From contig JAJZKW010000001.1 of assembly GCA_021803945.1 (NCBI GenBank), forward strand, positions 8,517 to 72,516: a stretch of 64,000 bases of DNA, written 5' to 3'. Source of the stretch: Candidatus Micrarchaeota archaeon. GTDB lineage: Archaea > Micrarchaeota > Micrarchaeia > Micrarchaeales > CABMGC01. A program made the translations under genes and the position numbers. Position 1 is the stretch's first letter; every line of letters begins with the position of its first letter. The notes below the pieces were generated by a model, which was not told where the DNA came from, did no database searches, and saw only the letters and a program-made list of their open reading frames with translations. Of the stretch, positions 46,021 to 64,000 are shown one piece after another.

Positions 46021-46197
46021 CGGGCTGCCCAAAAAGGGCACGCAAAGGCTTTTAAGCATGACTTCGCCTGCTGACGTCTAACCGATGCAAAGCTTTAAAT
46101 ATCTAATTATGCATCATTTATCCACTAGTTTTTAGCGGGTTTTAAAAAATTTGTTATGGGATTTGCCGCATGTTTGCGTTATATTTAAGTGATTGAA

Positions 46198-47226: not shown

Positions 47227-47230
47227 GCGC

Positions 47231-47665
47231 ATGCTCGCGGATTTACGGAGTGATCCCATGAAGCAGGAGATGCGTGTTTTTTTAGCCCTGCTTATCTTCC
47301 CTGTGCTGCTTAGCGCCCAGCAGATGTCAGGCACAAACTACACCAGTTCGCAGGCAAACCAGACCATAGCCTCCGCATATTCCTACGTAAACACTGTGAA
47401 TGAGAGCGGTTACCTTGTCTTCCAGCCTAACCTGACAGCGTCGTACAGGTACCTGCTTATGGCATCGCAGATATACAACAGGTCGCCGGACACTGCAGTG
47501 TTCTACGCGCAGAAGGCGCAGCAGATTGCGCAGCAGCAGTACAGCAGCATGGGCTACTACAGGCAGAGGTCGTTTTTCGTTATCGCAGCCATAGCAATAG
47601 CATTTATGGTCATGCTTGCCAAGGTCATGCGTCCTGTAAGTCTCAGGAGAAGAGCAAAGAGATGA
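47231..47665 (+). CDS. Hypothetical secreted/membrane-anchored protein
   Basis: Signal-like 'VFLALLIFPVLLSAQQ', C-terminal TM 'FFVIAAIAIAFMVMLA' plus a basic tail. No family recognised. Confidence 0.35.
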   Translation: MLADLRSDPMKQEMRVFLALLIFPVLLSAQQMSGTNYTSSQANQTIASAYSYVNTVNESGYLVFQPNLTASYRYLLMASQIYNRSPDTAVFYAQKAQQIAQQQYSSMGYYRQRSFFVIAAIAIAFMVMLAKVMRPVSLRRRAKR

Positions 47666-47669
47666 ATTC

Positions 47670-48956
47670 TTGGTGGATAAAAAGAGGGTACTCGGGCTCC
47701 ATAAGAAGGCTGGAGGCAAGATAGAGGTCATGCCGAAGGTCATGATAGACAATGAGGGCGAGCTTTCCATATACTACACCCCAGGAGTGTCATATGTAAG
47801 CGAGGAGATAAAGGGCAATGCAGACAAGGCATACGACTACACCTCGAAATCCAATACCATTGCAATAGTCTCTGACGGGACGAGGATACTGGGCCTTGGG
47901 GACATAGGTCCGTACGCAGGGATACCAGTTATGGAGGGCAAGGCCGCCCTTTTCAAGAAGTTCGGCGGAGTGGATGCAGTGCCTTTATGCATAGGCACAA
48001 CGGACGAGGACGAGATCGTAAAGCTCATCAAGGCAATATCGCCGAACTTCGGCGGCATAAACATAGAGGACATAGAATCGCCTAAGAGCTTCAGGATAGT
48101 GGAAAGGCTATCAGAGGAGCTTGACATACCAATATTCCACGACGACAGGCACGGCACCGGGGTTGTCGCTCTGGCTGCCCTTCTGAACTCCTTGAAGCTA
48201 ACAGGCAGAGGCAAGGGCGCGCGCATTGTGGTAAACGGGGCGGGATCGGCAGGGTTCGGCATAGCAACCCAGCTAATAAGTTCTGGATTCAGGAACATGG
48301 TCGTGCTTGACAAGAACGGCGCGATATACAAGGGCAGGGAGAGCGGAATGAACCCGTTCAAGGAGGAGATAGCCTCGCATACAAACGCGAGAAGGGTTAG
48401 CGGCGATTTGGCAGACATGCTAAAAGACGCAGACGTGCTGATAGGCGCGTCTGAGAGGGGCGCGTTTGGAAAGGACCACATAGCGCTCATGAACGGCAAG
48501 CCGATAGTATTCGCGCTTGCGAATCCGTATCCAGAGATAGAATATGACGAGGCGAAAGATGCAGGAGCGTATATCGTGGCTACAGGGAGAAGCGACAAGC
48601 CCAACCAGGTCAACAACATACTGGCATTCCCAGGGATAATGAGGGGGCTTTTAGATTCAAGGGCTAAGGCGGTTTCCTTCAAGATGCTGCACAACGCCGC
48701 TGTCACAATCGCCAGGAGCGTGGGCAGGAGACTCAGCACAGAGTTCATAATCCCATACGCATTGGAGAGGGGATTCGCTTTCAATACTGTGCCTAAGGTT
48801 GCCGCAAGCGTCGCGGAGTCCGCAGCAGCAGAGGGGCTCGCGCGCAAAGCGATCTCTTTTGAGTCGGAATTCAGGAATGCAGAGAGGCTGATCAGGAGAT
48901 ACGACAGCATGGAGCGCATATCCAAGAGATTCCTCGTTGGAGAAGGCAGGAGATAG
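47670..48956 (+). CDS. NAD(P)-dependent malic enzyme
   Basis: 'YYTPGV', 'GLGDIGPYAGIPVMEGKAALFKKFGG', 'FHDDRHGTGVV', 'VVNGAGSAGFG'. TTG start. Confidence 0.9.
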   Translation: MVDKKRVLGLHKKAGGKIEVMPKVMIDNEGELSIYYTPGVSYVSEEIKGNADKAYDYTSKSNTIAIVSDGTRILGLGDIGPYAGIPVMEGKAALFKKFGGVDAVPLCIGTTDEDEIVKLIKAISPNFGGINIEDIESPKSFRIVERLSEELDIPIFHDDRHGTGVVALAALLNSLKLTGRGKGARIVVNGAGSAGFGIATQLISSGFRNMVVLDKNGAIYKGRESGMNPFKEEIASHTNARRVSGDLADMLKDADVLIGASERGAFGKDHIALMNGKPIVFALANPYPEIEYDEAKDAGAYIVATGRSDKPNQVNNILAFPGIMRGLLDSRAKAVSFKMLHNAAVTIARSVGRRLSTEFIIPYALERGFAFNTVPKVAASVAESAAAEGLARKAISFESEFRNAERLIRRYDSMERISKRFLVGEGRR

Positions 48957-49003
48957 AAGGCAGGGTATATTAGCATATACTGCGTAATATCTATCGTGGT
49001 TTT

Positions 49004-49468
49004 ATGGTAGAAGTAAACGGGCCTGTCCCAAAAGTCTCCCTGTATGATACAGAGATGAACCGTGTCAAAGTGCAGAAGGTCAGCAAGGGCAAGTCGACTG
49101 TGATAGCCTTCTTCCCGGCCGCATTCACAAGCGTTTGCACAAAGGAGATGTGTACCTTCAGCGATGCAATTGCGAAGTTCAACTCCCTTGACGCGAATGT
49201 AATAGGCATAAGCGTTGACAGCCCGTTCTCAAACAAGGCCTTCAAGGAGCACAACAAGATAAACTTTACTCTCTTGAGCGACTTCAAGAGGAAGGCTGTC
49301 AAGAAGTTCGGCGTAGAGCTCAAGGACTTCAACGGCCTGAAAGGGTACATATCAGCCAAAAGGTCTGTTTTCATAGTGAATAAAGAAGGCCTCATAACAT
49401 ACAAGTGGGTTACAGAAGACCAGGCAAAAGAGCCAAACTACGAAGAGATAAAAACCGCCCTTGCCTGA
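49004..49468 (+). CDS. Peroxiredoxin (AhpC/TSA, Bcp-like)
   Basis: 'VIAFFPAAFTSVCTKEMC' peroxidatic Cys motif, 'GISVDSPFSNKAF'. Confidence 0.9.
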   Translation: MVEVNGPVPKVSLYDTEMNRVKVQKVSKGKSTVIAFFPAAFTSVCTKEMCTFSDAIAKFNSLDANVIGISVDSPFSNKAFKEHNKINFTLLSDFKRKAVKKFGVELKDFNGLKGYISAKRSVFIVNKEGLITYKWVTEDQAKEPNYEEIKTALA

Positions 49469-49539
49469 AAACCCTCAGTGTAAAATAGGTTCAACGCCTA
49501 ACAAAAATATTTATAAATAAATATGTAGTATTAAATTTC

Positions 49540-50226
49540 GTGACCAATATGGCCAAGAATCCGACTTTGTTGCAGAAGGCTTTTGTGGAAGGGCTGGGTA
49601 CGTTCATCCTGGTGTTCATAGGTGCAGGAGCTATAATATCGTCAGGACATTTCTTCTCAGGATCGGCTCAGCTGCTTGTGATAGCGCTTGCATTGGGGCT
49701 TGCGCTTGGAATCGCAGTGACAATTGCATTGGACATATCCGGTGGGCACATAAATCCGGCAGTCACCATAGCCATGCTATTGACTAATAGGATAAAGGCG
49801 TATGACGCCCTGGTGTACATAGTGGCGCAGCTCATAGGGGCAGTCATAGGCGCAGGAGTTCTTCTCATAGTCCCGTCCTCGATATCTGCAGGGACGTTCG
49901 GTATGACTGTACTCAACCCTTCAGTCAGCGTGTTCCAGGGAATAGTCATAGAGGCGCTCATAACATTCGTACTGATGATTGTAGTATTCGCAACAACGGT
50001 TGACAAGAGGACGGTCAAGGTAGGCGGATTTGCAGTTGGCCTGGCCCTGACATTGGGAATACTGTTTGCAGGACCGCTCACAGGAGGATCCGCAAATCCT
50101 GCAAGATCGTTCGGCCCTGAGCTGATAACAGGAAACTTCGCGAACTGGTATGTATACTGGATAGGGCCGATAATCGGAGCGGTGCTGGCAGCGCTCATAT
50201 ACCAGTATGTCCTGCTCAGGAAGTGA
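49540..50226 (+). CDS. aqpM: Aquaporin / MIP channel
   Basis: Two NPA boxes ('GGHINPAVT', 'GGSANPARSFGP') and six TM helices. Confidence 0.9.
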   Translation: MTNMAKNPTLLQKAFVEGLGTFILVFIGAGAIISSGHFFSGSAQLLVIALALGLALGIAVTIALDISGGHINPAVTIAMLLTNRIKAYDALVYIVAQLIGAVIGAGVLLIVPSSISAGTFGMTVLNPSVSVFQGIVIEALITFVLMIVVFATTVDKRTVKVGGFAVGLALTLGILFAGPLTGGSANPARSFGPELITGNFANWYVYWIGPIIGAVLAALIYQYVLLRK

Positions 50227-50352
50227 GTAGCAAAACAACAGGCGTATGTGTTATTTTGTGCAATTCCGTTGCATATAAATATCACCCTAGCCATATCTAT
50301 ATTCATATCCAATAACCGCCCCACGGTTATATCTGGAATCTAGGTCGAATCT

Positions 50353-50997
50353 ATGGCTAATAAAACCACCAAAATCCAACTATCAAAACCTGAGTTATCT
50401 GCATTACTGGCCGCAGCTCGCAAAGACGGTTTCGATGCAGGTTTTGAATCTGGTACCAAATCTGCGTTTGCGATTGATGAGAAAACCGGGCTATACACTG
50501 AACGCAGGTTTAAGGAGGATCTCGTACACAATATAAATCGTTTCCGTAGAGATAACATCACTGCAACAATATTGTTTATAGATGTAAACAATATGAAGGG
50601 CCTTAACGATACATATGGCCACGATCTAGTTGATGGTTTATTAATCAAACTTGCAGAAGTTATGAAATCTTCTATAAGAAATACGGACAATGTATACAGG
50701 AGATACATGACCGGAGATGAATTCATGATTATACTTGAACATACAGAAACTTCCGGCGCGCAAAAATTCATTGGAAAATTAAATCTTGCGATCGCAAATG
50801 ATCCCGAATTGAGTCAATACGGATTAAGCGTTTCTATTGGAACATCAAGCATAATTGACATTGTTAATGCCGAAGGTGTTAAGGTTATACATGATCCTAA
50901 TCAGCTAGTCACGACGATGAGTGAAATTGCAGATGCAGCTATGCGAGCTAATAAAATGTCACACAAGCAAGCACTTGTCAAGGCGCAAAGAAAGTAA
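50353..50997 (+). CDS. Stand-alone GGDEF-domain nucleotide cyclase homolog (TGDEF variant)
   Basis: 'DEKTGLYTERRFKEDL', 'ILFIDVNNMKGLNDTYGHDLVDGLL', 'YRRYMTGDEFMIIL', 'LSVSIGTS', 'ADAAMRANK' match the ordered conserved GGDEF blocks. There is only about 45 aa of N-terminal sequence and no sensor domain. Confidence 0.75.
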   Translation: MANKTTKIQLSKPELSALLAAARKDGFDAGFESGTKSAFAIDEKTGLYTERRFKEDLVHNINRFRRDNITATILFIDVNNMKGLNDTYGHDLVDGLLIKLAEVMKSSIRNTDNVYRRYMTGDEFMIILEHTETSGAQKFIGKLNLAIANDPELSQYGLSVSIGTSSIIDIVNAEGVKVIHDPNQLVTTMSEIADAAMRANKMSHKQALVKAQRK

Positions 50998-51052
50998 TGC
51001 ACAATCTCATTACAAACCAAACCTAAAATATTATTAGGAATTCTAATATTAT

Positions 51053-51334
51053 TTGAGTATATATTTTTTCAGTATAAAGAAGCAGATAAAACCAAATAAA
51101 AAGAAAAATAAAGATAAATATTTGAAAGAAAACAATATTGGTGATGAATTGTCACAAATAAAATTCGGAGATCGTCCGCATGGTTTTAGTTTTGTTGGTG
51201 ATAAAAAAGGCCTGCTGGATTTTGCAAGAGCAATAAATGCAATATGCCCAGATAAGCGGTTTGTGGATTTGACTCCACAAGACAAAGAGCTTCTGATTAT
51301 GATGGTAAGACCAATAAAGCCTAGGAACGATTAA
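51053..51334 (+). CDS. Hypothetical small protein (weak call)
   Basis: 93-aa ORF with a Lys-rich, low-complexity N-terminus. No motif recognised, and it may start internally or be non-coding. Confidence 0.2.
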   Translation: MSIYFFSIKKQIKPNKKKNKDKYLKENNIGDELSQIKFGDRPHGFSFVGDKKGLLDFARAINAICPDKRFVDLTPQDKELLIMMVRPIKPRND

Positions 51335-51842
51335 ATACCTGCATGCAAAAATAAACCGATCACGCAATCCATTCCGAACAAGATAATTCTGCGTTGTCGA
51401 AACAAGTCATACTAACAATATTCTAGTAATTCTAATATAGTTTAGAATTGCTCTTTATCTGCGTTTACAGCCCTTATTATCATAGCCAAGTAAATCATCA
51501 AAAGGAAATTATCAGGCTTTGCAAGGCCAATCCTGCGCGATATTTTGACGTCGGAAGACCGTCTTGGTTACACTTCCACTATTCCTCCAGGCGTGAGAAT
51601 ACGCATTCCAAATTTCTGGTTTAATTCTAACTACTTCCATATATTTGGCATAAAAACAGCCCGAAGAGGAAAATCATATCCTTTTCTGCAGTTTTAGCCA
51701 TTAAGGGGGGTGGCATGACCAGGACAAGGCATTTTCCAAAAATACGGAATGCAGGGCTTTACTGAAATCATTTTTTGCGCTAAAATTATGGAAGCCGGCA
51801 GTCTTAGATGCATCTATATGGTGATTTCAATTAAATGAAAGC

Positions 51843-52523
51843 TTACCTTCTCAGCAACTCCAACATCCTGCTTTTCAGTAATTCTCCCGCCTTCTTGTCA
51901 TTTTCAACCGCTTTCCCCATACTTCTTGCAAAATCATCCGGCCATATGGTCATAGGATCTATCAATACCGGTTTTCCATCCACAACTATTATGTTAGTAT
52001 AATTCAGATCGCAATGGCCAACCCCATATTCATGTAGTCTGTTTATAACGCCTATTATCTGCTCTCCCAGATTGACAAATGCAACTACCTTGCTGCGGTC
52101 CCTTTGCGCCTCGATATAATACTCGAGTAGGGCTTTTCCCTCCAAGTATTCAATGACACTCCCTACAGGATTATAATTAATATCGAGTCTTACATATGCC
52201 AATGCTATCGGAGTTGCTGCATTGTCTGGTAATAGTGAATGCAATAGGCGTAAATGCTCAAATTCACCCGGCCTAAAACCCAATGTCCCCCGGATCCCCG
52301 AAGCAGTAGTGAACGGTGTCTTGCTTCCTGTGACTGCGTCTGTCCTTTCTTTTTTGACGATCGGGCCAAGGTATGCTTCAGTCCAACCCGGCCTATAACA
52401 TAATTTTAGGAACAACTTTTCCTTAGTATATCCATGCCCAGCCAGATTCTGGAATAATGCTACGGCATTTGGCGCAGGTATCCTTAACCCTAGCTCAGTA
52501 CTCTGTCTTAATTGTGTAGTCAT
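51843..52523 (-). CDS. Protein kinase-like fold protein (RIO/Kdo/Bud32-like catalytic loop)
   Basis: 'HEYGVGHCDLNYTNIIVVDGKPVLIDP' gives an HxDLxxxN catalytic loop plus an 'IDP' metal-binding position. No clear glycine-rich loop was recognised. Confidence 0.5.
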   Translation of the reverse strand: MTTQLRQSTELGLRIPAPNAVALFQNLAGHGYTKEKLFLKLCYRPGWTEAYLGPIVKKERTDAVTGSKTPFTTASGIRGTLGFRPGEFEHLRLLHSLLPDNAATPIALAYVRLDINYNPVGSVIEYLEGKALLEYYIEAQRDRSKVVAFVNLGEQIIGVINRLHEYGVGHCDLNYTNIIVVDGKPVLIDPMTIWPDDFARSMGKAVENDKKAGELLKSRMLELLRR

Positions 52524-52801
52524 GCTATTTCACACTATTTCCACCAGTTTTGATATATATTACTTTTACTCTCTTGGACAATAGTCTAATTCTAATAACC
52601 TCTTGGAAATTCTAGAAAGATTTAAGTCTAATATTCTGCCTTCCTTTTTCCCGAAGGTTTCCATAAGATATGCCTGTTGAATGCTCCTCCAAAGTCGTTG
52701 AAATTGTAGATAACCGATGTTCACCAATCCACCGAAATTATAAACGGCCAAAGCAAATCACAAACTATTTATATATGCATATGCATATACCTATTGATGC
52801 A

Positions 52802-53023
52802 ATGGTAAAAGTAATCTCAGTATCCGATGAGGCATATGCACTTCTTAAAAGGCTAAAAGGCCAAAAACTGTCGTTTTCGGAGGCAATAAAGGAAGCCGTA
52901 TACAAGAATAAACAGGACAAGACTGCAATAATGGGTCTTTTCGGATCATTGAAAGGCAAGATCAATGCCAAACGATGGAAGGCGCAACTATATGCGGATC
53001 GCGAACGGCCCTGGACCGGGTAA
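52802..53023 (+). CDS. vapB: VapB-type antitoxin (same family as 18619-18858)
   Basis: 'MVKVISVSDEAYALLKRLKGQKLSFSEAIKEAV'. Start moved to ATG 52802. Immediately upstream of a PIN gene. Confidence 0.65.
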   Translation: MVKVISVSDEAYALLKRLKGQKLSFSEAIKEAVYKNKQDKTAIMGLFGSLKGKINAKRWKAQLYADRERPWTG

Positions 53024-53031
53024 GCGATAGG

Positions 53032-53409
53032 ATGGTAATAATCGATACGGATGTATTGATAGACTTCTTGGAAGGCGACAATAGCGTCCGCGAGGCGGTA
53101 TACAAGCGAATGCAGTATGGCAAGGTAGCTACCACAATAATAAACCAGTATGAACTATTCAAAGGCGTCGAATCAAGAGAACAGGAAGATGCGATAGATG
53201 CACTCCTGTCAAAGTTGGAGATTTATGTCATGGATCATGCGTCCATGAAAAACGCCGCGCTGGCATTCCAGGCATTGAAGAAGTCCGGGTATCTTATACC
53301 AGAGGCAGACATTTTGGTAGCAGGTATTGCGCAGTCGCACGGGGAGACCATACTTACAAGAGACCATCACTTTAAGAAGCTGCAGATGATAAAAACCGAG
53401 ATAATATGA
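53032..53409 (+). CDS. vapC: PIN-domain toxin VapC
   Basis: 'MVIIDTDVLIDFLEG', 'EADILVAGIA', 'ILTRDHHF' PIN acidic residues. Start at ATG 53032. Confidence 0.85.
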   Translation: MVIIDTDVLIDFLEGDNSVREAVYKRMQYGKVATTIINQYELFKGVESREQEDAIDALLSKLEIYVMDHASMKNAALAFQALKKSGYLIPEADILVAGIAQSHGETILTRDHHFKKLQMIKTEII

Positions 53410-53510
53410 TCAGTTAAATTACAGCCAAATCAAAACACATCTACCCATGTTTACAGTTTACCTTATAAGTTTTCATAAAGAAAGTTTGTCTGCAGATTCA
53501 AAGGTCTTGT

Positions 53511-54251
53511 ATGCACGTGAAAACCAAAGTACTCATATATGCTGCCGCAATAGTCATTGTACTAGCGTACGGATCAATAGGCAGCTACCTGCTGAGCCAA
53601 AATAATGGATTCAGTACTAAGATAAACAGCCCCATAACAGCGCTTTACTTCACTATAGTGACCGTTTCCACAGTGGGATACGGTGACATAGTCCCAGTGA
53701 CGCGAACCGCAAGGGCATTCACAATGGTCCTGATCATAGCAGGACTCAGCGTCTTCCTCAGTGCAGTTACTGTTTTATCAGGTGATATAATGGATTCGAG
53801 AATAGACAAGCTTTCAGGCAGGATATCTGGGTTCGAGAGGAGGATGCTTAACAAGCACACCATACTGATTGGTGCAGACGCCGCAAACCTCTCCCTTGCA
53901 GAAAAGATGAGGGCAGAAGGCAAAAAGTTCGTATTTTTGACTTCTGACAAGGTAATAGTGGACAAGCTGAGGGAAGACGGATATAATGCCTTTATCGCAG
54001 ACCCGACATCGAACAAGGACCTCCTGTTATACAACCTTGACAAGGCGAAGACGATAATAATAGACCTCAAGGAGAACTCGCGCACTTTCTACACCATACT
54101 GCTTGCAAGGAAGCTGTCAAAAAGCGCAAGGATAATTGCCATAGTCCAGACAAAGGAGATAGAAGAGCACGTGAAGGCGTTCAATCTCAATGTAGAAATA
54201 ATAAATCCGTCAGACAAGATAGCCGATATTGTCAACAAGAACATCAAATAG
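53511..54251 (+). CDS. 2-TM potassium channel with C-terminal RCK/TrkA-N domain (MthK-like)
   Basis: Selectivity filter 'TVSTVGYGD' between two TM helices, then a Rossmann-like 'HTILIGADAANLSLAEKMRAEGKKFVFL'. Confidence 0.85.
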   Translation: MHVKTKVLIYAAAIVIVLAYGSIGSYLLSQNNGFSTKINSPITALYFTIVTVSTVGYGDIVPVTRTARAFTMVLIIAGLSVFLSAVTVLSGDIMDSRIDKLSGRISGFERRMLNKHTILIGADAANLSLAEKMRAEGKKFVFLTSDKVIVDKLREDGYNAFIADPTSNKDLLLYNLDKAKTIIIDLKENSRTFYTILLARKLSKSARIIAIVQTKEIEEHVKAFNLNVEIINPSDKIADIVNKNIK

Positions 54252-54411
54252 CGCAAGCGCCTTGCAACAACTACTGGCTAATCCTGTTGGCCTGTTGATT
54301 AGGAAGCCTGCCCAAACCGATGATCATCGCAGCGCCCAGACAGCTAAAAACGCATAGGTTTTAAAAGCTTGGCCAGAAAAAAAGCAACTTATATATATCA
54401 CAAAAGGAAAA

Positions 54412-54681
54412 ATGACATACGGTTGTACCATGCCAGAACAAATAGCCAAACGTAAAAGTCCTAAAATATTGGAAGCTGCTTTCGGAGTCAGCACATTGGC
54501 AACAGTAGCAGGGTTTGCCGGCTATTTAGGCGTATATGTGACAGAGCCATTATTTCATCTATCAAATAAGATACCAACAGAGATGCTTAGGTACGGGACA
54601 ACGGCGCTAATTGTCTCCTTCGGAGCTCTTCTTCTATCTGGTTTTGTAGAAAGCAATTTCAAGGGGTCAAAAAGGCCTTAA
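54412..54681 (+). CDS. Small membrane protein
   Basis: 89 aa with two hydrophobic helices. No family recognised. Confidence 0.3.
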   Translation: MTYGCTMPEQIAKRKSPKILEAAFGVSTLATVAGFAGYLGVYVTEPLFHLSNKIPTEMLRYGTTALIVSFGALLLSGFVESNFKGSKRP

Positions 54682-54870
54682 TCCAGCATACATTGCTCTG
54701 CTTATACATGCTCCCTTTTTTGTCTGCCAAATCTACTATAAATCCTTAAATACTCTACATCACCCATAGTTTTGGAATGCAATGCAAAGCCGACAACAAT
54801 TAAATACGCACTCACTCAAATATGTGTATGGCAGTCAAACCTGCTTTTATGTGCGGAATGATGATTGGGC

Positions 54871-57800
54871 ATGTTTAAACTTAATGTGATTACAGCCTTC
54901 TCTATTTTGATACTCGGCCTTGTGCTTATCCCTTCTGCGGTCCAGGCAAACCCTTGCGGAACGTTTCCTTCAGGCATGTCGTACTGCCAGCAGCTCTCTA
55001 TAGCAAACCAGCAATCAAGCGCAGTTGCTGCGGGAACGCAGGTGATGCTAAACTACAACGCCCTCGCGTACAATACCTACCTTGCATCGAATCTGATGAA
55101 CATCGAGGTGTATAATTCAATATCCGGGAACGTTCTGTATACGTGGCTCGAGGGCAACACCCTGAACGAGAACCAGGGTACCCTTCTTTCCACGTCAGCA
55201 AACATACTATACTGGATTAACCTCGACACCCCTATAGCTGCAAGCAGCACGGACTCGAATATTTACCTCGCGTACTTCCCAACCACAAACGACCTGTTCA
55301 ATGGGAACAACCTTGGCGCAGCCCCGCAGCTCTACTGCGCAAGCGGATGCCCTACTATTAGCTACAATGCAATAGACAACGGTCAAAAGGTGTTTCCGCT
55401 GCTATACCAGAACTTCGCAGGAACCTTAGTTCCTACTGGATGGGCCAATACTGGAGGGGTCATAAGTAATGGAGTAACGCTGAGCAGCTCTGTAGGTAAT
55501 TCAATGGTCACATCTGCGTTATACGGTCTTAATTCGACTCAGATAGAGGACATATACGGAAATCTTCAAGGATCTAGCACTGCAACAAACATTTATTTTG
55601 GCTATACAAACAGCAATAATGCAGACTGTCTTGGCTGGGGCGTAGGCGGGAACGGAGTTACTGGTGCACCAGCTTCAAATTCCATCATATATAATTTTTA
55701 TGGTAATACGTGTTCACATAGCTCTGCAATTTTTGGAAACCTAAATCCTTCAGAAACAACAAATGCCGTATTCACTACTTATTGGCCCTCGTCAACATCC
55801 ATAATATCAAGTTTTGACTACGGCCCTACCAACGAGATAAGCAGCGCTTATACGGCACAATTGCCAATCGGATCATATGTGGATGGAGGCACTGGCGCTT
55901 TCATGCAGTGGGTCCGCCTTCGAACGTACCCTCCAAACGGAGTTCAGCCTACTGTAACGTTTGGGTCTGTGCAATCCATAAATGCGCCATCATGTACAGT
56001 ATCGATAACCAACCCCTCAAATGCAATAGTAGATGCAGGCCAGTACGAGACATTCATAGCCTCGAATACCAACTGCGTAAGCCCGTATACCTACAATATA
56101 CTCGTGGTTAACTCGATTACGCCTGCAACCATAACACACAACGACCTTGTCACAGGAAGCACTTCATCTTCTATAACATACACCTTCCAGGCTGCAAGCT
56201 ACGATGTCTCCAACAGTCCTGAGGAGGCAAACGTAGTGCTGACGGACTCAGGGACAAATACAGTGACTTCGGGATATTCATCAACATTTACCATAAACCC
56301 CGCACTGGTGGCCAGCGCATCTCCGACTCCAACCTCCCCAACAATATATCAGGGCCAATCTGTCGCGCTGTCGATATCCGCTCCCACTGCAGGAACATCT
56401 CCATATTCATACCAGTGGTATTCAGGCTCATCTTCGACTTGCACATCGGATTCTCCCATTCCAAACGCAGCATCGCTGTCATACACGGCCTCGCCTTCAG
56501 CAAATACATATTATTGCGTAAAGGAAACGGACAATGTAAATGAAGTAGTCTATACCGGCACAGATTTGGTAACGGTCCTCCCAGCCACGAACTTCTCAGA
56601 GACGGGACTGCCTGACGGCGCAGTCTGGACTGTCACATACAACAGCGTAAGCACTAATACAGTAGCATCCAACTCTATATACTTCCACTCCTCCCTAAAC
56701 ACCGGGTCTACCTATTCGTTCATTATAAACAATAGCATAATAAGCGGGGTGCCATACCTGCCCACGCCTTCGGGAGGAAACCTACAGGCAGGCAACGCGA
56801 TCAACATAAAATTTGCACCGCAGAATGTAATAACCCCAAGTCCCACAGAGCGTGTGATAATCCCATTATACATATATCCAAATGCCACTTACTCCCTCCT
56901 TCCGAGCTACATGCCCGGCCTTTACGGCGTTGTGATAAACCCAGACAGCGGTTCAGGCGCAAGCATAAATACGGACTATGCATCTGCAGCCGCGAAGCTG
57001 GAATCCAAAGGAGTGAAGGTCTTCGGGTACGTGCCAACAGGCTACGGAGCAGATCCGCTGTCATATGTCGAAGCCAACATAGTGAACTATTACAGCTGGT
57101 ATCATGTAAACGGGATATTCTTCGATGAGGCGAATTCCATATGCACTACATCAACAGAAAACTACTACAGCTCGCTATACGGGTACATAAAAGGCAATTA
57201 CCTGAGCAATACAGTCATACTAAATCCAGGGGCGCCGAGCGGACCATGCTACCAGTTCTATTCAGATATAATAAACGCATTTGAAAATCCGTATTCAGAT
57301 TACATAAACAGCGTCTATTCTCCTGATTCGTGGGCTTCCAATACCCTGCCATCTCACTTTATGAATATAATCTATGGCGTCCCGAACAATACCGTAGTGC
57401 AGCAGACAATCAACCTTGCCGACAACAGGAGCATTGGCTACGTGTACATCACCAATACTATGGGTGTTTATTCCATATTGCCACCATATTTTGCCCAGGA
57501 AGCAAACATGGTAAATCCGCTGGTAATAAAAAATCCTGTTGCAAGCACAGAGACTGCTGCCAACAGCCAGGCAATATCCTTCAATGTGATTGCAACCGGA
57601 GGGTCTGGCGCATACACATACAACTGGTTCGGCTTACCTCCAGGGTGCACTTCTCCAAACGCGAATTCCCTTAGCTGCACTCCCTCATCTCCAGGCACCC
57701 ATACAATATCAACCCAAGTCACTGACTCATATGGGTTTACCAACTCGTCGTCTCAGATAGTTTTTGATTCAGGAATAATATACAAGGTTCCGATAACGTT

Positions 57801-60102
57801 TACAAACTCCCAGACAAGCAATACGCCAAACCCATGGCAGCAGCCAGTAACAGTCAACAGCCTTGATTACCAAAATGTTGAGAATTCAAATATAATCAAT
57901 ACCGTATTTTTCTATCAAAACGGCACAATCATAAATTCATGGCTTGAAGGAAACGTGCTCAACGAGCAGCAGACAACAGGTCTTGCGACCTCAGAGAATA
58001 GCTTATATTACCTCAAACTGCCGAGTATCCCTGCTTCAAGCAGTCTAACCGTATATATGGGATTTGCTGGGAATACCATAAACCTGATGAATCCTGTTTC
58101 TACCGGAGAAGCTCCGCAGCTGACCACGCAATACGCACAATACGACAACGGGGGGCATGTATTCAGCTATTACCAAAACTTTTCCGGAACTGTTCTATCA
58201 TCTCTTTGGCAAAACCCAAATTCCTATACCGCAATACAGAACAACGGGCTTACTCTGACTGCTCCGTCAGGAGGGGGCCTATTCTATTATAACGTGAACA
58301 TGCCCAGTTCATATGCCGTTGATGCTTACATGAAAGGGAATTCTCTCCTGAGCTCTACAGTTACAGACCTCATGAGTATGGGAGCCGGAGGCAGCCTGAA
58401 CAATTACACAGAGCTATACCTCTCCAACTCATTGCCTTCAACCTGGATACTACAATCCGGCGGAAATTCGGGAGGTGGTACAGTTGTAGGGACCGAAAAT
58501 AACTATTATGTTATGACATTGAGCGGCACTCCGTCTAGCGTATCGTCCTTTGTAAATTACACCCCAATCAGTAGCCTCACAGGAGCCAGCAACTCTATCA
58601 ATCCAAATATCGGCGTATACACAAGCGGCGCAGGCGGAAACTCTTACTTTCTTGATTGGATGCGCGTCAGGTCTTATCCTCCAGGAGGAGTAACGCCATC
58701 TGCGACTTTCGGATCCCTGTCATCCACTACAATCCCTTCCATATCATCTACGCCTTCCCTGCCGAAGACCCTCGATACAGGCCAGACCATAGCATTCAAC
58801 GCGCTTGCAACAGAAGGCAGCGGGTCGTATACGGCTTACAACTTCCTTATATTCAACTCAGCAACCGGAATACAAGTAGGTAACTATCTCACAACGTCCA
58901 ATTCCTTCGCATATTCTATACCTTCATCAGAAGTGGGAAACACCCTGGCAGTAAACGTATTGGTTACTGATTCGAATGGGGAATCTGCCAATTCTATATT
59001 TACAGGAATGCTAACAGTAAACACCCAGCCTACGATATCGATCACTCCGTCGAAGACCTCGATAGACGCAGGACAGACAATAACGATAGCGAATACTGTC
59101 ACTGGAGGCACTGCGCCGTTCACCTACTCATACACAGTCAACTCGATGACAGGGGTCACGATAGGCAGCAACCAGATAACATTCGCGGATGCGGGCACAT
59201 TCAACGTCCTTGAATCAGTGACAGACACTGCAGGAGTCACAGCGTATTCGGCCAACAGCGTCATAACAGTCGCAGCGGCTCCACCTGCTCCCTCACCTCC
59301 AAGCAGCGGCAATGGAGGTTATAACAATAACATAGCCACTGTTACCATATCCAATAAGTTAAATGTTGCAATAGTGTCAAACCATAATAACATCGTGCAT
59401 AATCTTGCCTTCAATGTGACTATCATGATAAGAAGCGTGTTTTCAAACTCGGTAAGCATGTCATTTAAAAATATGACAGGAAACAAGACCATTCCAGGAT
59501 GCAGTTCCAATCTATATTCAATCAACGTCTCTATAATTCCCACTTCAACCGAGCCCATTACCACAGACCTGACCATACCTTATACATACACTTTCAACAA
59601 GGACGGTTTGGTGCCATTCATATGCACAGACAGAGAATGGGTGCCATATACAAATTACAGTATAAACCTGCAAAACCATACAATGACACTTAAAAATATT
59701 CCTTCAGATCCTATAATCGGATTGCTTTATCCAAATTATACTTCCAACGCTACGACTACCACTGTAACTACAATTCCTCAGGTAAACACAACAGTACCGA
59801 CAACATCGATACCTGTAGCACCAAAGACCACATCAATCATATACTCTACAGTAGTAACCACTATTCTTCCAGTTGTCCAGAGCCCTGTATCTGAAAATTC
59901 TAGCCTGTTTACGGCCATTGCAATACTACTGGTAATTATTGCTGTATCAATTTATCTCATTTTCAATAAAATGCGAGAGTCAAAAAGAAGAGATGAGGCA
60001 AAACGAGAAATAAAAAAGAAAGCTGAGGCAAAGACCTCGAAGGTAGACAAAAATCAGAGAAAGCTAATAAGCCACAAGGATAATCAAAAAGCAAAATCTT
60101 GA
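54871..60102 (+). CDS. Giant (about 1740 aa) cell-surface protein with DUF2341/LamG, Ig-like and Spherulin-4-like modules and a TM anchor
   Basis: Signal peptide 'FKLNVITAFSILILGLVLIPSAVQA'. Two DUF2341-like modules ('...NIEVYNSISGNVLYTWLEGN...IYLAYFP', '...VFFYQNGTIINSWLEGN...VYMGFAGN') each end in 'W(V/M)R(L/V)R(T/S)YPP.GV.P..TFGS'. Several roughly 100-aa Ig-like repeats carry 'GG(S/T).(A/P)(Y/F)TY'. The C-terminus has a Thr-rich linker, TM 'FTAIAILLVIIAVSIYLIF' and a Lys-rich tail. Confidence 0.85.
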   Translation: MFKLNVITAFSILILGLVLIPSAVQANPCGTFPSGMSYCQQLSIANQQSSAVAAGTQVMLNYNALAYNTYLASNLMNIEVYNSISGNVLYTWLEGNTLNENQGTLLSTSANILYWINLDTPIAASSTDSNIYLAYFPTTNDLFNGNNLGAAPQLYCASGCPTISYNAIDNGQKVFPLLYQNFAGTLVPTGWANTGGVISNGVTLSSSVGNSMVTSALYGLNSTQIEDIYGNLQGSSTATNIYFGYTNSNNADCLGWGVGGNGVTGAPASNSIIYNFYGNTCSHSSAIFGNLNPSETTNAVFTTYWPSSTSIISSFDYGPTNEISSAYTAQLPIGSYVDGGTGAFMQWVRLRTYPPNGVQPTVTFGSVQSINAPSCTVSITNPSNAIVDAGQYETFIASNTNCVSPYTYNILVVNSITPATITHNDLVTGSTSSSITYTFQAASYDVSNSPEEANVVLTDSGTNTVTSGYSSTFTINPALVASASPTPTSPTIYQGQSVALSISAPTAGTSPYSYQWYSGSSSTCTSDSPIPNAASLSYTASPSANTYYCVKETDNVNEVVYTGTDLVTVLPATNFSETGLPDGAVWTVTYNSVSTNTVASNSIYFHSSLNTGSTYSFIINNSIISGVPYLPTPSGGNLQAGNAINIKFAPQNVITPSPTERVIIPLYIYPNATYSLLPSYMPGLYGVVINPDSGSGASINTDYASAAAKLESKGVKVFGYVPTGYGADPLSYVEANIVNYYSWYHVNGIFFDEANSICTTSTENYYSSLYGYIKGNYLSNTVILNPGAPSGPCYQFYSDIINAFENPYSDYINSVYSPDSWASNTLPSHFMNIIYGVPNNTVVQQTINLADNRSIGYVYITNTMGVYSILPPYFAQEANMVNPLVIKNPVASTETAANSQAISFNVIATGGSGAYTYNWFGLPPGCTSPNANSLSCTPSSPGTHTISTQVTDSYGFTNSSSQIVFDSGIIYKVPITFTNSQTSNTPNPWQQPVTVNSLDYQNVENSNIINTVFFYQNGTIINSWLEGNVLNEQQTTGLATSENSLYYLKLPSIPASSSLTVYMGFAGNTINLMNPVSTGEAPQLTTQYAQYDNGGHVFSYYQNFSGTVLSSLWQNPNSYTAIQNNGLTLTAPSGGGLFYYNVNMPSSYAVDAYMKGNSLLSSTVTDLMSMGAGGSLNNYTELYLSNSLPSTWILQSGGNSGGGTVVGTENNYYVMTLSGTPSSVSSFVNYTPISSLTGASNSINPNIGVYTSGAGGNSYFLDWMRVRSYPPGGVTPSATFGSLSSTTIPSISSTPSLPKTLDTGQTIAFNALATEGSGSYTAYNFLIFNSATGIQVGNYLTTSNSFAYSIPSSEVGNTLAVNVLVTDSNGESANSIFTGMLTVNTQPTISITPSKTSIDAGQTITIANTVTGGTAPFTYSYTVNSMTGVTIGSNQITFADAGTFNVLESVTDTAGVTAYSANSVITVAAAPPAPSPPSSGNGGYNNNIATVTISNKLNVAIVSNHNNIVHNLAFNVTIMIRSVFSNSVSMSFKNMTGNKTIPGCSSNLYSINVSIIPTSTEPITTDLTIPYTYTFNKDGLVPFICTDREWVPYTNYSINLQNHTMTLKNIPSDPIIGLLYPNYTSNATTTTVTTIPQVNTTVPTTSIPVAPKTTSIIYSTVVTTILPVVQSPVSENSSLFTAIAILLVIIAVSIYLIFNKMRESKRRDEAKREIKKKAEAKTSKVDKNQRKLISHKDNQKAKS
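55090..55391 (+). repeat. 302-nt tract 100% identical to 62079-62380 (copy 1)
   Basis: Read directly. From AATCTGATGAACATCGAGG... to ...GACAACGGTCAAAAGGT the two paralogs are identical base for base, while the flanking coding sequence is only about three-quarters identical. Confidence 0.9.
56854..57505 (+). other. Spherulin-4-like (glycoside-hydrolase-like TIM barrel) domain inside the giant surface protein
   Basis: 'VIIPLYIYPNATY...GVVINPDSGSG...GVKVFGYVPTGYG...YYSWYHVNGIFFDEA...ILNPGAP...NAFEN...GYVYITN' resembles the spherulation-specific family 4 pattern (IxPLYxYP...NPxNGPG...GYVxTxY...GIFxDE). Confidence 0.55.
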
Positions 60103-60424
60103 AGGCACATCAGAAAAGTCTGTATAACTTAAAGCCGTATGCCTTCACAATTACCTCTTTGATGACGCATGTATATATACCTTGCTATTGCAAGCCGCCA
60201 GAAAGAGATTATAGAAACTGCACGCTTTGCAAACCTACAAAACTTTTTCATGCGCTAATCTTCATCTTTTACGAAAAAAATCTGGCATGCGCAATCAACG
60301 AACTCAACATATAGATTTAAATAGGAGAATAAATTACCTTGATTTAGTGTTGTAAGTGGTAAGTAAACTCTTGAAGTATGCAGGATTTACGGAACAGAGG
60401 ACGCTATCAGTAATAATCAATAAT

Positions 60425-60455
60425 ATACGGGACATAATGAATAATTATCCCGTAT
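60425..60455. promoter_or_regulatory. 8-bp perfect inverted repeat ATACGGGA-N15-TCCCGTAT upstream of the wHTH regulator gene
   Basis: Located about 50 nt upstream of ATG 60506. Candidate operator. Confidence 0.35.
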
Positions 60456-60505
60456 TGGTTGTTTAAGAGCATAACATAAAAAACTAATCTTTTCAAGGTG
60501 CTCTT

Positions 60506-60847
60506 ATGCAACTACAAAACGATACTATTAGGAATCCCAGTTTAAGCTTAAAGGTTACAGACAAGGAGCTTGCAATCCTCTACGAGATAGGCCTGAATCT
60601 CATACCCACTGCCACGGAATTTGTTGAGAAGGTGGCAACAGAGTACAAAGTCTCGCAGAGCGGGGTGTGGTACACCTTAAAGAAGCTGAAGACGGAGGGG
60701 CTTGTTGATTTTGCAGAGAAAGGAGAGATACACAGGCCGCTATCCCTGACTGCTAATGGCACACATGCGATAAGAAGCAGGGTCCTAGATGTTGATAAGA
60801 GGCAGTATCACCTATTGGCAGGAATGACAGTGCACGCCAAGAACTAG
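60506..60847 (+). CDS. Winged-helix (MarR/ArsR-like) transcriptional regulator
   Basis: 'TATEFVEKVATEYKVSQSGVWYTLKKLKTEGLVDFAEKGE' is an HTH plus wing. Confidence 0.55.
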   Translation: MQLQNDTIRNPSLSLKVTDKELAILYEIGLNLIPTATEFVEKVATEYKVSQSGVWYTLKKLKTEGLVDFAEKGEIHRPLSLTANGTHAIRSRVLDVDKRQYHLLAGMTVHAKN

Positions 60848-60867
60848 GCAACAGGCGGCTGCAACGC

Positions 60868-61263
60868 TCAGCAATCTTTCAAGGCTCTGCTTTTCAGGCC
60901 CTCTATGCCTCCTTTCAGGCTGTATGCTCTAATGCCGAGTCCAGAAAGCTTACTAGCAAACTCTAATGACATTCTACCGTGAGGGCATACTATTATGGAT
61001 CCGTCAAACTTCCTGCCAATGGCTTCGGCCATGCCTTTATCTACTGTGTTGAGCATTATCTGCATTGCTTCTCCCGTGTCTATGCCTTTTGCGCCGTTTT
61101 TAGCTCCAAACACCTCAGTAACAAATTCTAGGTCCGCATAATTGTTCAGGAATACATATATCTCCCTGCCCTTTTTGACAAGTTTCTGCGCATTCTCTAC
61201 TCCTATTTCAATATCTTCTCCCATAGTCTCATCTGAGTATTGCATAAACCAGCGCCAATGCAA
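60868..61263 (-). CDS. Rhodanese-domain protein
   Basis: 'IIVCPHGRMSLEFASKLSGLGIRAYSLKGGIEG' gives a rhodanese active-site loop (CxxxxR(S/T)) and the C-terminal 'L.GG' signature. The start is probably internal ('MQYSDE' or later). Confidence 0.65.
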   Translation of the reverse strand: MHWRWFMQYSDETMGEDIEIGVENAQKLVKKGREIYVFLNNYADLEFVTEVFGAKNGAKGIDTGEAMQIMLNTVDKGMAEAIGRKFDGSIIVCPHGRMSLEFASKLSGLGIRAYSLKGGIEGLKSRALKDC

Positions 61264-61492
61264 TTATAACTATGGCTATGCCTATCGGCAATAAATATTT
61301 CATGATGCGTATGATGCTTATCCCATCTGCTTCTCTAACCGCACCAAAATCGCCCGGGTCTATGTACTTTACCTCTTCTTTCTCCCCGATGCTGTAATCT
61401 CCATCTATCCTTCCTGGATTGTTTGGCATGAAATAACTATAGATTAAAACATATAAATAATTAGCTTTATCCGATTTTACGTACTCATTCAC
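61229..61492 (-). CDS. Small membrane protein (weak call)
   Basis: 87 aa with a C-terminal TM 'LLPIGIAIVIIALALVYAIL'. Overlaps the upstream end of the rhodanese ORF. Confidence 0.25.
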   Translation of the reverse strand: MNEYVKSDKANYLYVLIYSYFMPNNPGRIDGDYSIGEKEEVKYIDPGDFGAVREADGISIIRIMKYLLPIGIAIVIIALALVYAILR

Positions 61493-61683
61493 TAAAAACT
61501 ATTCTACACAGTAAATCCACATCATTGGCCTTGTAGAAATCCTCTCCTATCAAGGAAACCAGTTGGATACCAGATAGGAGGCTTGCTATCGATGCGTTTC
61601 ATTTTTATGAAATGCAAACACCCTTCTTTCCCAATAATGCCTTAGCATTTCTACAGGGCCCACATCATTATCAAATTTACTAT

Positions 61684-61784
61684 AATTGCTCAATATTGTG
61701 TGGCATTTGGGCGATTTTGCATTGAGCTATCGAAGATAGCTAGTTTGGAACTTGTGGTTTTACCACAAGTTATTGAGCAATTAC
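61684..61784. promoter_or_regulatory. Nested inverted repeats upstream of the second surface-protein gene
   Basis: The outer 13-bp perfect arms are TAATTGCTCAATA (61684-61696) and TATTGAGCAATTA (61772-61784). Inside are AGCTATC-GAA-GATAGCT and CTTGTGG-TTTTA-CCACAAG hairpins. Confidence 0.45.
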
Positions 61785-61859
61785 AATTAACCTACTGATT
61801 TTGCCTTTAAATTCTGTTCATGTAAAGGCTTAAATAGGATATAAACTCATATCTCTCAT

Positions 61860-64000
61860 ATGTCAAAATTTAAAGCAATATCAACATTCTCATTTTTGAT
61901 ATTTATCATCGCACTTATACCTTCTTCGGTTCAGGCAAATTCTTGTGGAAAGTTCCCAAGCGGCATGTCTTACTGCCAGCAGCTTACGATCTCAAACCAA
62001 CAGCCAGGCGCAGTTTCTGCAGGGACCCAGATAATGCTCAACTATAATGCATTGAACTACAAAACTTATCTTGCCTCAAATCTGATGAACATCGAGGTGT
62101 ATAATTCAATATCCGGGAACGTTCTGTATACGTGGCTCGAGGGCAACACCCTGAACGAGAACCAGGGTACCCTTCTTTCCACGTCAGCAAACATACTATA
62201 CTGGATTAACCTCGACACCCCTATAGCTGCAAGCAGCACGGACTCGAATATTTACCTCGCGTACTTCCCAACCACAAACGACCTGTTCAATGGGAACAAC
62301 CTTGGCGCAGCCCCGCAGCTCTACTGCGCAAGCGGATGCCCTACTATTAGCTACAATGCAATAGACAACGGTCAAAAGGTATTCCCACTGCTATATCAGA
62401 ACTTCGCTGGAAATACACTTCCAACAGGATGGATAGCAAGTAGCAGCGCAACTGCAAATATAAATAACGGATTGACTTTCAGTACAACTGCACAATATCA
62501 ACAGTACTCGTATAGCAGCGTAACGTTCAATGCACCATATATCTATGAGCTTTACGGTGAGGCAAAAGCTCAGTCAAACCAAAACATTAACCTTGCACCG
62601 CTGCTTACAACTTCCTCTACATCATTAACAAATTACTACGGCACAATATTGTGGAGTAATGGTTTGAATACACCGTTCTATTGGGCATATAGTCCTCAGA
62701 GCCAAGAAAAAGCTAGTACTACCACAAATAATGCAATCCCGCAACTTAATGAATTCTACATCCTTGGAATAAGTGGCACCGCATCTAACTCAAATTATAC
62801 AGTGAACTATCAGAATATAGGTCAAAGCAAAACCGTAGGTTTATCGCCCAATATGTATGCAGGGATATGGGGAGACCAAGGCGTAAACGAATTCATATAC
62901 TGGCTTCGCATCCGTTCATATCCTCCAAGTGATATAATGCCATCTACAACTTTTGGTCCCTTGTCATTTTCTGTTTCTCCTTCCATATCTGCGTCTCCAT
63001 CACTTCCAGCATCACTAGATGTAGGTCAGACTGAAACATTCAATGCTCTTGAGATAGGAGGAACAGCACCGTATACTTATAATTTCCTAATATTCAACTC
63101 GGCAACCGGGATACAGGTTGGAAATTATATCACGGCTTCGAACTCATTCGTATACCAGGTACCGTCATCTCAGGTGGGAAACACCCTAGTAGTAAACGTA
63201 CTGGTCACAGATTCGAATGGAGAATCCGCAAATTCAATAAACACAGGAGTGCTTTCTGTTAAACCTGCGCTCTCAACATCTATTAATTCAATTCCAACTC
63301 TTCCTGCGTCATTAGACGTAGGGCAGACTGAGGCATTCAATGCTATCGCAACTGGAGGATCTGGCACATACACCGCATACAACTTCCTAATATTCAACTC
63401 AGCAACTGGGATACAGGTAGGTAATTATCTCACAACATCTAATTCATTCACTTACTTGATACAATCTTCTCAGTCAGGAAATACGCTAGTCGCAAACGTT
63501 CTGGTTACTGACTCAAACGGAGAGTCATCCAATTCAGTATATACTGGGATACTAACAGTGAATCCATTGCCAGCCATATCCATAACTGCCAACACTCTTT
63601 CCACAGACGTCGGACAGTACATAATGATATCGAACACTGTGACAGGAGGTACTGCGCCGTACTCGTTCACCTACAACGCAGTAGGTCTCACAGTATCAGG
63701 AAATACGATCACGACATCGACTCCTGGAACCTACTACGTAACCGAGAACGTAGTGGACAAGTTCGGGAAGCAGGCGGCATCTAACCTCCTCACCCTCACA
63801 TTCAACGCGCTCCCGACCTTCACGTCATTCTCCCCTCTCACCAACACGATAGACACGGGAGGGTCCGTGACATTCACCAACACGATTGCGGGAGGAACAG
63901 CGCCGTTCGCATACGCATACACGGTCAACGGAATAGGCAACATGATATCAGGAAACACGATAACGTTCAACAATGCTGGAACATTCACAGTATACGAGAC
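61860..64000 (+). CDS. Second giant DUF2341/LamG/Ig-repeat surface protein, 5' part (runs off the window; absent from the ORF track)
   Basis: I translated manually from ATG 61860: 'MSKFKAISTFSFLIFIIALIPSSVQANSCGKFPSGMSYCQQLTISNQQ...NIEVYNSISGNVLYTWLEGN...WLRIRSYPPSDIMPSTTFGP', then Ig-like repeats. I verified the frame is open from about 62373 to 63290. The antisense shadow ORFs listed for 63170-63988 suggest it stays open beyond that, but I did not translate it. Confidence 0.85.
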   Translation, partial: MSKFKAISTFSFLIFIIALIPSSVQANSCGKFPSGMSYCQQLTISNQQPGAVSAGTQIMLNYNALNYKTYLASNLMNIEVYNSISGNVLYTWLEGNTLNENQGTLLSTSANILYWINLDTPIAASSTDSNIYLAYFPTTNDLFNGNNLGAAPQLYCASGCPTISYNAIDNGQKVFPLLYQNFAGNTLPTGWIASSSATANINNGLTFSTTAQYQQYSYSSVTFNAPYIYELYGEAKAQSNQNINLAPLLTTSSTSLTNYYGTILWSNGLNTPFYWAYSPQSQEKASTTTNNAIPQLNEFYILGISGTASNSNYTVNYQNIGQSKTVGLSPNMYAGIWGDQGVNEFIYWLRIRSYPPSDIMPSTTFGPLSFSVSPSISASPSLPASLDVGQTETFNALEIGGTAPYTYNFLIFNSATGIQVGNYITASNSFVYQVPSSQVGNTLVVNVLVTDSNGESANSINTGVLSVKPALSTSINSIPTLPASLDVGQTEAFNAIATGGSGTYTAYNFLIFNSATGIQVGNYLTTSNSFTYLIQSSQSGNTLVANVLVTDSNGESSNSVYTGILTVNPLPAISITANTLSTDVGQYIMISNTVTGGTAPYSFTYNAVGLTVSGNTITTSTPGTYYVTENVVDKFGKQAASNLLTLTFNALPTFTSFSPLTNTIDTGGSVTFTNTIAGGTAPFAYAYTVNGIGNMISGNTITFNNAGTFTVYE
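62079..62380 (+). repeat. 302-nt tract 100% identical to 55090-55391 (copy 2)
   Basis: See copy 1. The identity starts and stops abruptly inside the DUF2341-like module. Confidence 0.9.
62990..63590 (+). repeat. Two tandem ~300-nt (100-aa) Ig-like repeat units, related to 58740-59040 in the first paralog
   Basis: The core '(Y)NFLIFNSATGIQVGNY(I/L)T(A/T)SNSF.Y......(V/S)GNTLV.NVLVTDSNGES.NS..TG.L.V' recurs with a 300-nt period (about 63084 and 63384). One copy sits in the first gene (about 58840). More diverged units follow to the end of the window. Confidence 0.8.

Follow-up and report, generated by a model that had tools for sequence, protein, structure and literature searches.

A 302-nucleotide identical tract in two surface-protein genes of a Micrarchaeota archaeon, probably left by recent gene conversion

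The window analyzed here is a stretch of 64,000 nucleotides (nt) from a 145-kb contig (C10:8517-72516) of a 902-kb, 26-contig assembly, a scaffolded metagenome-assembled genome (MAG) with N gaps. It encodes two large surface proteins, g1 and g2 (Table 1), whose genes share, close to their 5' ends, a tract of 302 nt without a single difference. The product of g1 is composed of a signal peptide, a DUF2341-like N-terminal module (N-module), a variable concanavalin A (ConA)-like region, immunoglobulin (Ig)-like repeats, and a Spherulin4 domain (amino acids [aa] 661-881; Pfam PF12138, 2.3e-37), followed by a second DUF2341-like and lectin module, Ig-like repeats, and a C-terminal transmembrane (TM) anchor. 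The product of g2 has a signal peptide, the same N-module, a different variable ConA-like region, Ig-like repeats, and a C-terminal TM anchor. The closest ortholog of g1 at NCBI (P0022) is named 'spherulation-specific family 4 protein [Candidatus Micrarchaeaceae archaeon]', which points to the Micrarchaeota, tiny, symbiotic, and genome-reduced members of the DPANN archaea. As judged from the sequences, the tract is very probably the product of a recent ectopic (interparalog) gene conversion.

Table 1. Features of the g1-g2 locus (window coordinates) and contigs with homologs of the N-module
Feature	Position	Strand	Description
g1	54871..60102	+	Surface protein, 1,743 aa (translation)
5' diverged flank of g1	54871..55089	+	Signal peptide and first 46 mature codons; partner 61860-62078
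Tract copy 1	55090..55391	+	In g1, codons 74-174; putative donor
3' short flank of g1	55392..55443	+	Ends the conserved module (...VFPLLYQNFAG...); partner 62381-62432
Variable lectin-like region of g1	55444..55908	+	Module junction to WVRLRTYPP strand; g2 counterpart 62433-62900
Lineage-specific region upstream of g2	61463..61859	+	Synteny with sister MAG lost (blastn)
g2	61860..64000	+	Open at window end; continues to about window-equivalent 65812
Tract copy 2	62079..62380	+	In g2; putative recipient
N-module homolog	L022:2875-6222		ENA metagenome contig
N-module homolog	L023:94-3579		ENA metagenome contig
N-module homolog	L024:9733-13092		ENA metagenome contig

In an earlier note on this DNA, the tract had been described as a perfect match between two genes about 7 kb apart, with sharp edges and with flanks that differ at one position in four or five. 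A pairwise alignment of both genes bears out this description: identity is confined to the tract, and the flanks are 70-78% identical. All 302 bases match on the same strand at a distance of 6,989 nt, mismatches at 55089 and 55392 bound the tract directly on either side, and the genome contains exactly two copies of it. The tract is embedded in a gapless homology of 573 nt (54871-55443 versus 61860-62432) with 74 differences in all, every one of which falls into the 271 flanking positions (27%), and the second-longest identical run in this alignment is 14 nt. When the 74 differences were permuted 200,000 times, no run longer than 120 nt was obtained, and the analytical bound is P ~5e-25. Third codon positions differ at 0 of 100 sites in the tract versus 45 of 91 in the flanks (Fisher's test, 1.6e-18). 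Upstream of the tract, the two genes have 70-72.5% nt identity, with different codons at 26 of the 48 positions that encode the same amino acid; the short 3' flank has 78% nt identity, and the alignment is lost after it. In terms of substitutions per synonymous (dS) and nonsynonymous (dN) site (Nei-Gojobori), the flanks of g1 and g2 have a dS of 1.40 and a dN of 0.19, and both values are 0 in the tract. A dS of 0 next to nearly saturated flanks excludes chance as well as selection at the level of the protein.

The homology of the two genes is itself limited in extent. At the DNA level it starts at the ATG, the regions upstream of both genes being unrelated, and beyond codon 191 g1 and g2 are unalignable (42% nt identity, effectively random). 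Elsewhere, they share only the Ig-like repeats, with 71-82% identity.

To find the direction and the timing of the exchange, orthologs of g1 that had been retrieved by database search were compared with both genes. The first, B1 (P0022), is encoded on a 40-kb contig (L025:10001-15247) of the sister MAG GCA_054610635.1 (Ca. Micrarchaeaceae) and is 86% identical to g1 over the first 400 aa; the second, o1 (P0003, locus L021), is 76% identical. Between g1 and B1, nt identity is 94% in the signal peptide, 89% in the upstream flank, and 87% in the tract, with dS values of 0.50 in the flanks and 0.58 in the tract. Between g2 and B1, the corresponding identities are 72%, 73%, and 87%, and dS drops from 1.41 in the flanks to 0.58 in the tract. 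The same switch of affinity is seen site by site: upstream of the tract, 48 sites join g1 with B1 and 8 join g2 with B1, and within the tract all 39 variable sites join g1 with g2 against B1. About 28 of these 39 differences to B1 are synonymous; to o1, the tract has 62 differences. Furthermore, the GC content of the tract (49.3%) is that of the 5' flank of g1 (49.3%), and the 5' flank of g2 has 40.2%. The tract thus lies at ortholog-level distance from B1 in both genes, and the flanks of g2 are paralog-distant, which points to g1 as the donor and g2 as the recipient of a transfer that would have taken place after the split from the B1 lineage. The ancestry from g1 extends at least over 55090-55353. 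Gene conversion between paralogs, as the earlier note had proposed, is supported and is the sole interpretation that accounts for the zero dS of the tract, the flank dS of 1.4, and the affinity switch inside the tract.

The absence of any difference over ~68 synonymous sites also limits the age of the event. By our own estimate, the rough 95% bound is a dS below ~0.03 to 0.04; for comparison, g1 and B1 have a whole-gene dS of 0.39 (dN/dS = 0.12), more than 10 times this bound.

A family alignment of 18 homologous modules revealed three parts. The N-terminal ~160 aa are conserved, with ...DNGxxVF..NFAG as their end in g1 and g2 (NFAG at aa 181-184); the next ~160 aa are variable; and the W-V/L-R-x-R-x-Y-P-P strand that comes after them (aa 347 of g1, aa 348 of g2) is again conserved. 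The tract stops ~17 codons before homology is lost at this family-wide junction, and the variable region begins at about codons 185 to 191. Since the tract lies wholly inside the conserved module, the event homogenizes and creates no diversity in the variable region; its effect, as far as the alignment tells, is concerted evolution of the conserved module, with the downstream variable lectin-like regions left untouched. Nine of the 18 modules match DUF2341 (PF10102; best E-value, 4.2e-9), a family for which we know of no established function. An AlphaFold model of aa 26 to 372 of g2 (pLDDT, 79.3; pTM, 0.83) has as its top Foldseek matches the L-type lectin carbohydrate recognition domain of Emp47p (E-value, 1.3e-7; TMt, 0.58) and GH16 laminarinases (probability, 1.0), and the modeled segment accordingly matches a predicted ConA-like lectin/glucanase fold. 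Both the nine matching modules and the fold of the g2 model resemble the DUF2341 and ConA-like/LamG surface proteins of archaea and bacteria; unlike those, g1 and g2 themselves are below Pfam detection and gave no match to DUF2341. A mechanism of the type used by diversity-generating retroelements was considered for the variable regions and rejected; the regions are unalignable and do not differ merely at particular sites.

The region around g2 differs between the two lineages. Synteny between L025 and the window (86-88% nt identity) covers 44795-61462 and the sequence from 65866 onward; in the blastn comparison, the block breaks off at 61462 and is taken up again at 64704, so that synteny with the sister MAG is lost over 61463-64703. 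At the position of g2, the sister MAG has an Ig-repeat gene of 778 to 800 aa without an N-module (L025:16604-17952). From this comparison, the promoter region and the 5' two-thirds of g2 appear to have been replaced between the two lineages. A hairpin-rich element with a 13-bp inverted repeat (61684-61784) is located within this lineage-specific stretch, which the sister MAG lacks. The search for an ortholog of g2 extended to other collections: besides the orthologs of g1, a protein homolog search returned nothing closer than 43-44% identity, an exhaustive HMMER search of 1.84 billion representatives gave a best match of 40% identity, and a metagenome scan gave no match to the variable region of g2. 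The exact g1 protein is not on record elsewhere. A tract 21-mer that is conserved in g1, g2, B1, and o1 had no match in metagenome contigs and, in genome contigs, only a chance match in a Limnohabitans MAG. With neither an ortholog of g2 nor a close relative of its variable region in the collections searched, the locus and the lectin-like region thus turn over fast.

How could the tract have been transferred? In our model, two same-strand paralogs 7 kb apart shared an old, diverged 5' module of 573 nt, and a 302-nt piece of it was transferred from g1 to g2 by homologous recombination, which wiped out all differences. The reaction would start with RadA-dependent strand invasion between the direct copies, within one chromosome or between sister copies, and heteroduplex repair or gap-directed synthesis would then leave a nonreciprocal patch of 302 nt. 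RadA/Rad51 (PF08423) is encoded in the genome (C8:38148-38864; 288.6 bits; 321-aa open frame). The molecular pathway is what we infer from the pattern, and the same holds for a single event and for the origin of the last ~40 nt of the tract.

Several observations weigh against this interpretation. The first is the 3' edge of the tract. Within 55354-55374 (62343-62363 in g2), 11 substitutions in 21 nt set g1 and g2 apart from B1 and o1, and the encoded peptide is TISYNAI in g1 and g2 versus STSYAGV or ATSYGGV in the orthologs. Independent point mutations along a short branch would not produce such a density. Over the 52 nt that follow the tract, B1 agrees with g2 at 6 sites and with g1 at 4. 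The substitution cluster and the mixed 3' sites therefore speak for a mosaic 3' edge, for which a single event from g1 to g2 is not the full explanation; judging from these sites, the last ~40 nt of the tract may not be of g1 ancestry and may go back to a mosaic or a second event. The cause may be patchy repair of heteroduplex, a separate microevent, or an older exchange that ran the opposite way. Second, an ortholog of g2, and hence g2 in its state before conversion, was not found in any collection searched. Third, flanks without an identical run longer than 14 nt are a poor substrate for classical homologous recombination; either earlier conversions would have kept the core of the module more alike than its edges, or archaeal recombination would tolerate mismatches. 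Fourth, two points depend on the assembly: an identity of exactly 100%, where a few collapsed variants would make it ~98-99%, and the physical linkage of the ~50 nt in the center of the g2 copy.

The sequence just past the junction is diverged in the comparison with the sister MAG as well, in a gene that is otherwise conserved. At 55411-55570 (aa 181-232 of g1), g1 and L025 differ by a hypervariable or recombined patch with indels and a dS of ~1, and g1 and B1 are only 36% identical at aa 181 to 210, although the gene is 88% identical overall. A second patch of raised dS (1.17) between g1 and B1 covers aa 293 to 352.

A broader reading of the tract starts from homologs on candidate mobile elements. 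Proteins of ~1,100 aa with C-terminal TM helices (P0005-P0010, P0027, P0028, P0033, and P0034) have the same conserved N-module, and their first 400 residues are 42-45% identical to those of g1 and g2 in amino acid sequence. The contigs that encode them are crowded with small unannotated open reading frames, and on L023 there are, in addition, two integrases, a resolvase, and a D5-type primase, which are the only functions that PHROGs and Pfam recognized among the neighbors of the element-borne homologs. This suggests that the homolog-bearing contigs may belong to a virus or plasmid; in IMG/VR, the element-type N-module has no relative. Within the family, breakpoints recur at the junction that follows the N-module. 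Three independent pairs of these proteins (P0005/P0008, P0009/P0028, and P0033/P0034) are 86-100% identical except for columns ~180 to 360, where identity is 13-36%, so that a swapped lectin-like cassette of ~170 aa is all that distinguishes the two alleles of a pair. In their DNA, L022 and L024 have 90-92% identity to the left and right of a 548-nt segment that starts at codon 169 and is unalignable, and the homology of either of them to L023 ends at codons 169 to 172. On the strength of the three allele pairs, the L022/L024 segment, and the different 5' part of the sister MAG at g2, it is imaginable that the N-module and the W-V/L-R-x-R-x-Y-P-P strand are recombination handles that bracket a swappable ConA-like cassette, that this cassette system is common to chromosomal surface-protein genes of Micrarchaeota and to the ~1,100-aa membrane proteins of candidate mobile elements, and that the tract is the footprint of an ongoing exchange that keeps the handles recombination competent. 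Taken together, these three assumptions form a tentative proposal that we consider unlikely as a whole.

A rival of the conversion from g1 to g2 is an artefact of assembly or consensus calling, in which the two copies differ in reality and were collapsed or cross-filled by the assembler or polisher. The assembly gives some reason for caution. The majority of the contig ends share exactly 127 nt with the end of another contig, at 100% identity (for example, C10 1-127 = C19 127-1 and C10 145447-145573 = C21 1-127), and from these overlaps the genome looks to us like a de Bruijn assembly with k = 127. A repeat of 302 nt exceeds this k, and its resolution needed read pairs or loop traversal; furthermore, small bubbles can be popped by metagenome assemblers, which would mask a few real differences. 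The genome is a scaffolded MAG of 26 contigs with N gaps, and one such gap (10 N; window-equivalent 64295-64304) splits g2 inside its tandem Ig-like repeats, 1.9 kb downstream of the tract. This gap is flanked by exact duplicates of 127 and 248 nt (window-equivalent 64047-64683; C10:72563-73199), which leaves it uncertain how many repeats g2 has and how long it really is. Against an artefact stands that bulge removal in a de Bruijn graph is unable to merge sequences that are 27% diverged. The tract lies inside its contig, at a great distance from the gap, and keeps the reading frame in both genes, and the order of flank, tract, and body in g1 is colinear with the independently assembled sister MAG. 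In a graph of this kind, an exact repeat of 302 nt forms a single shared edge. With g1 fixed in this way, A-R-B...C-R-D is the sole linear path through the graph, and the junction 127-mers tie at least 126 nt at each end of the tract to flanks that are specific for g2. Even in the worst case, the identity would be slightly below 100%, which leaves the conclusion unchanged. An artefact is, hence, very improbable. The warning of an assembly hazard in the earlier note was a fair caveat, but it bears more on the Ig-like repeats at the 10-N gap of g2 than on the tract.

Two further features of the assembly were noted in passing. Several contigs are probably joinable via their 127-nt end overlaps, and other long internal repeats are present at C5:39585-46616 (1,956 nt with 98.5% identity and 1,124 nt with 94.5% identity). 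The C5 repeat pair may be another recent duplication or conversion.

Alternatively, DNA from a closely related strain could have overwritten both copies, or the copy in g2, without any transfer from g1 to g2. That the 5' two-thirds of g2 (61463-64703) have no counterpart in the sister MAG, and that the locus accordingly turns over, would fit such an import, as would the replacement of cassettes between alleles seen in the family. However, the tract matches the resident g1 at 100% and has the composition of the g1 flanks. An external donor would need an essentially identical g1, and the explanation would then differ from a conversion by the resident g1 only in the source molecule; we see little chance for it, about as little as for an artefact.

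The earlier note had also alluded to surface-antigen variation. Antigenic or phase variation by gene conversion is known from pilE/pilS of Neisseria, vlsE of Borrelia, and the variant surface glycoproteins (VSG) of trypanosomes, and a programmed conversion of this kind would switch or shuffle variants of the surface proteins. Common to these systems and the g1-g2 locus are surface-protein genes, nonreciprocal recombination, and conserved segments beside variable ones. In line with this idea, a hypervariable lectin-like region follows directly on the converted module, homologs carry lectin cassettes that are swapped from the same junction, and the g2 locus of the sister lineage differs in its 5' part. 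Unlike those systems, the g1-g2 locus has no archive of silent cassettes. The genome contains only two copies of this module type (and one distant internal module), both of them in complete genes with a start codon and a signal peptide, and therefore it does not have an archive system like that of pilE/pilS. In addition, it is the conserved and not the variable segment that was converted, and a specialized cis element was not seen at the locus. Paralogous modules in eight related genomes have 70-92% DNA identity without comparable perfect islands, although one run of 62 nt was nominally significant. Programmed variation is therefore a still slimmer prospect than an import from outside, the g1-g2 locus is not a member of the antigenic-variation systems, and the allusion is unsupported as stated, given a conserved module, two complete genes, and a homogenizing event. 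Finally, purifying selection at the nucleotide level on an embedded RNA, regulatory element, or DNA site, in favor of which there is nothing beyond the identity of the tract itself, can be dismissed as next to impossible, since the tract dS of the orthologs (0.58 for B1 and 1.29 for o1) is equal to or near that of the flanks, free synonymous change that excludes a conserved RNA or DNA element, and since no Rfam family matches within 54000-64000.

Cases of concerted evolution include tufA/tufB and the rRNA operons. Concerted evolution has been treated for prokaryotic paralogs in general (Wang & Chen 2018, PMC6053082), and gene conversion restricted to one domain has been described for the archaeal paralogs mtrA-1 and mtrA-2 (Wang et al. 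2015, PMC4632066). Like mtrA-1/mtrA-2, g1 and g2 are paralogs within one genome that underwent nonreciprocal homologous recombination, with one shared domain homogenized and the remaining architecture of the two genes different, and both cases were detected by an identity tract and by paralogs that group against their orthologs. In contrast to the long-lasting, recurrent conversion of mtrA-1/mtrA-2, g1 and g2 show a single recent event of 302 nt; the flanks of their module are saturated (dS of 1.4), so that homogenization is patchy; and they encode fast-evolving surface proteins of a DPANN archaeon and not core enzymes. Among the papers searched, none connects surface proteins of Micrarchaeota with gene conversion.

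In sum, we regard the tract as the result of a real and recent ectopic gene conversion whose mechanism is ordinary and known from textbooks. What this analysis adds is the direction from g1 to g2, the relative age, the exclusion of a nucleotide-level constraint, the improbability of an artefact, and the homogenization of the conserved part of the module. To our knowledge, recombination in DPANN archaea has hardly been studied, and the tract provides a clean, oriented, and datable case of active recombination between paralogs in a genome-reduced member of this group. It marks the g1-g2 locus as recombinationally active, and a direct repeat of 302 bp is in turn a substrate for deletion of the intervening 7 kb, which would yield a g1/g2 hybrid gene. 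For annotation and assembly, it is of relevance that the repeat is longer than the k of the assembler and lies beside a region of uncertain repeat copy number. What the finding contributes is modest unless the cassette pattern across the family proves to be a real specificity-switching system; if so, cassette exchange would re-target the putative attachment specificity of the symbiont or its elements.

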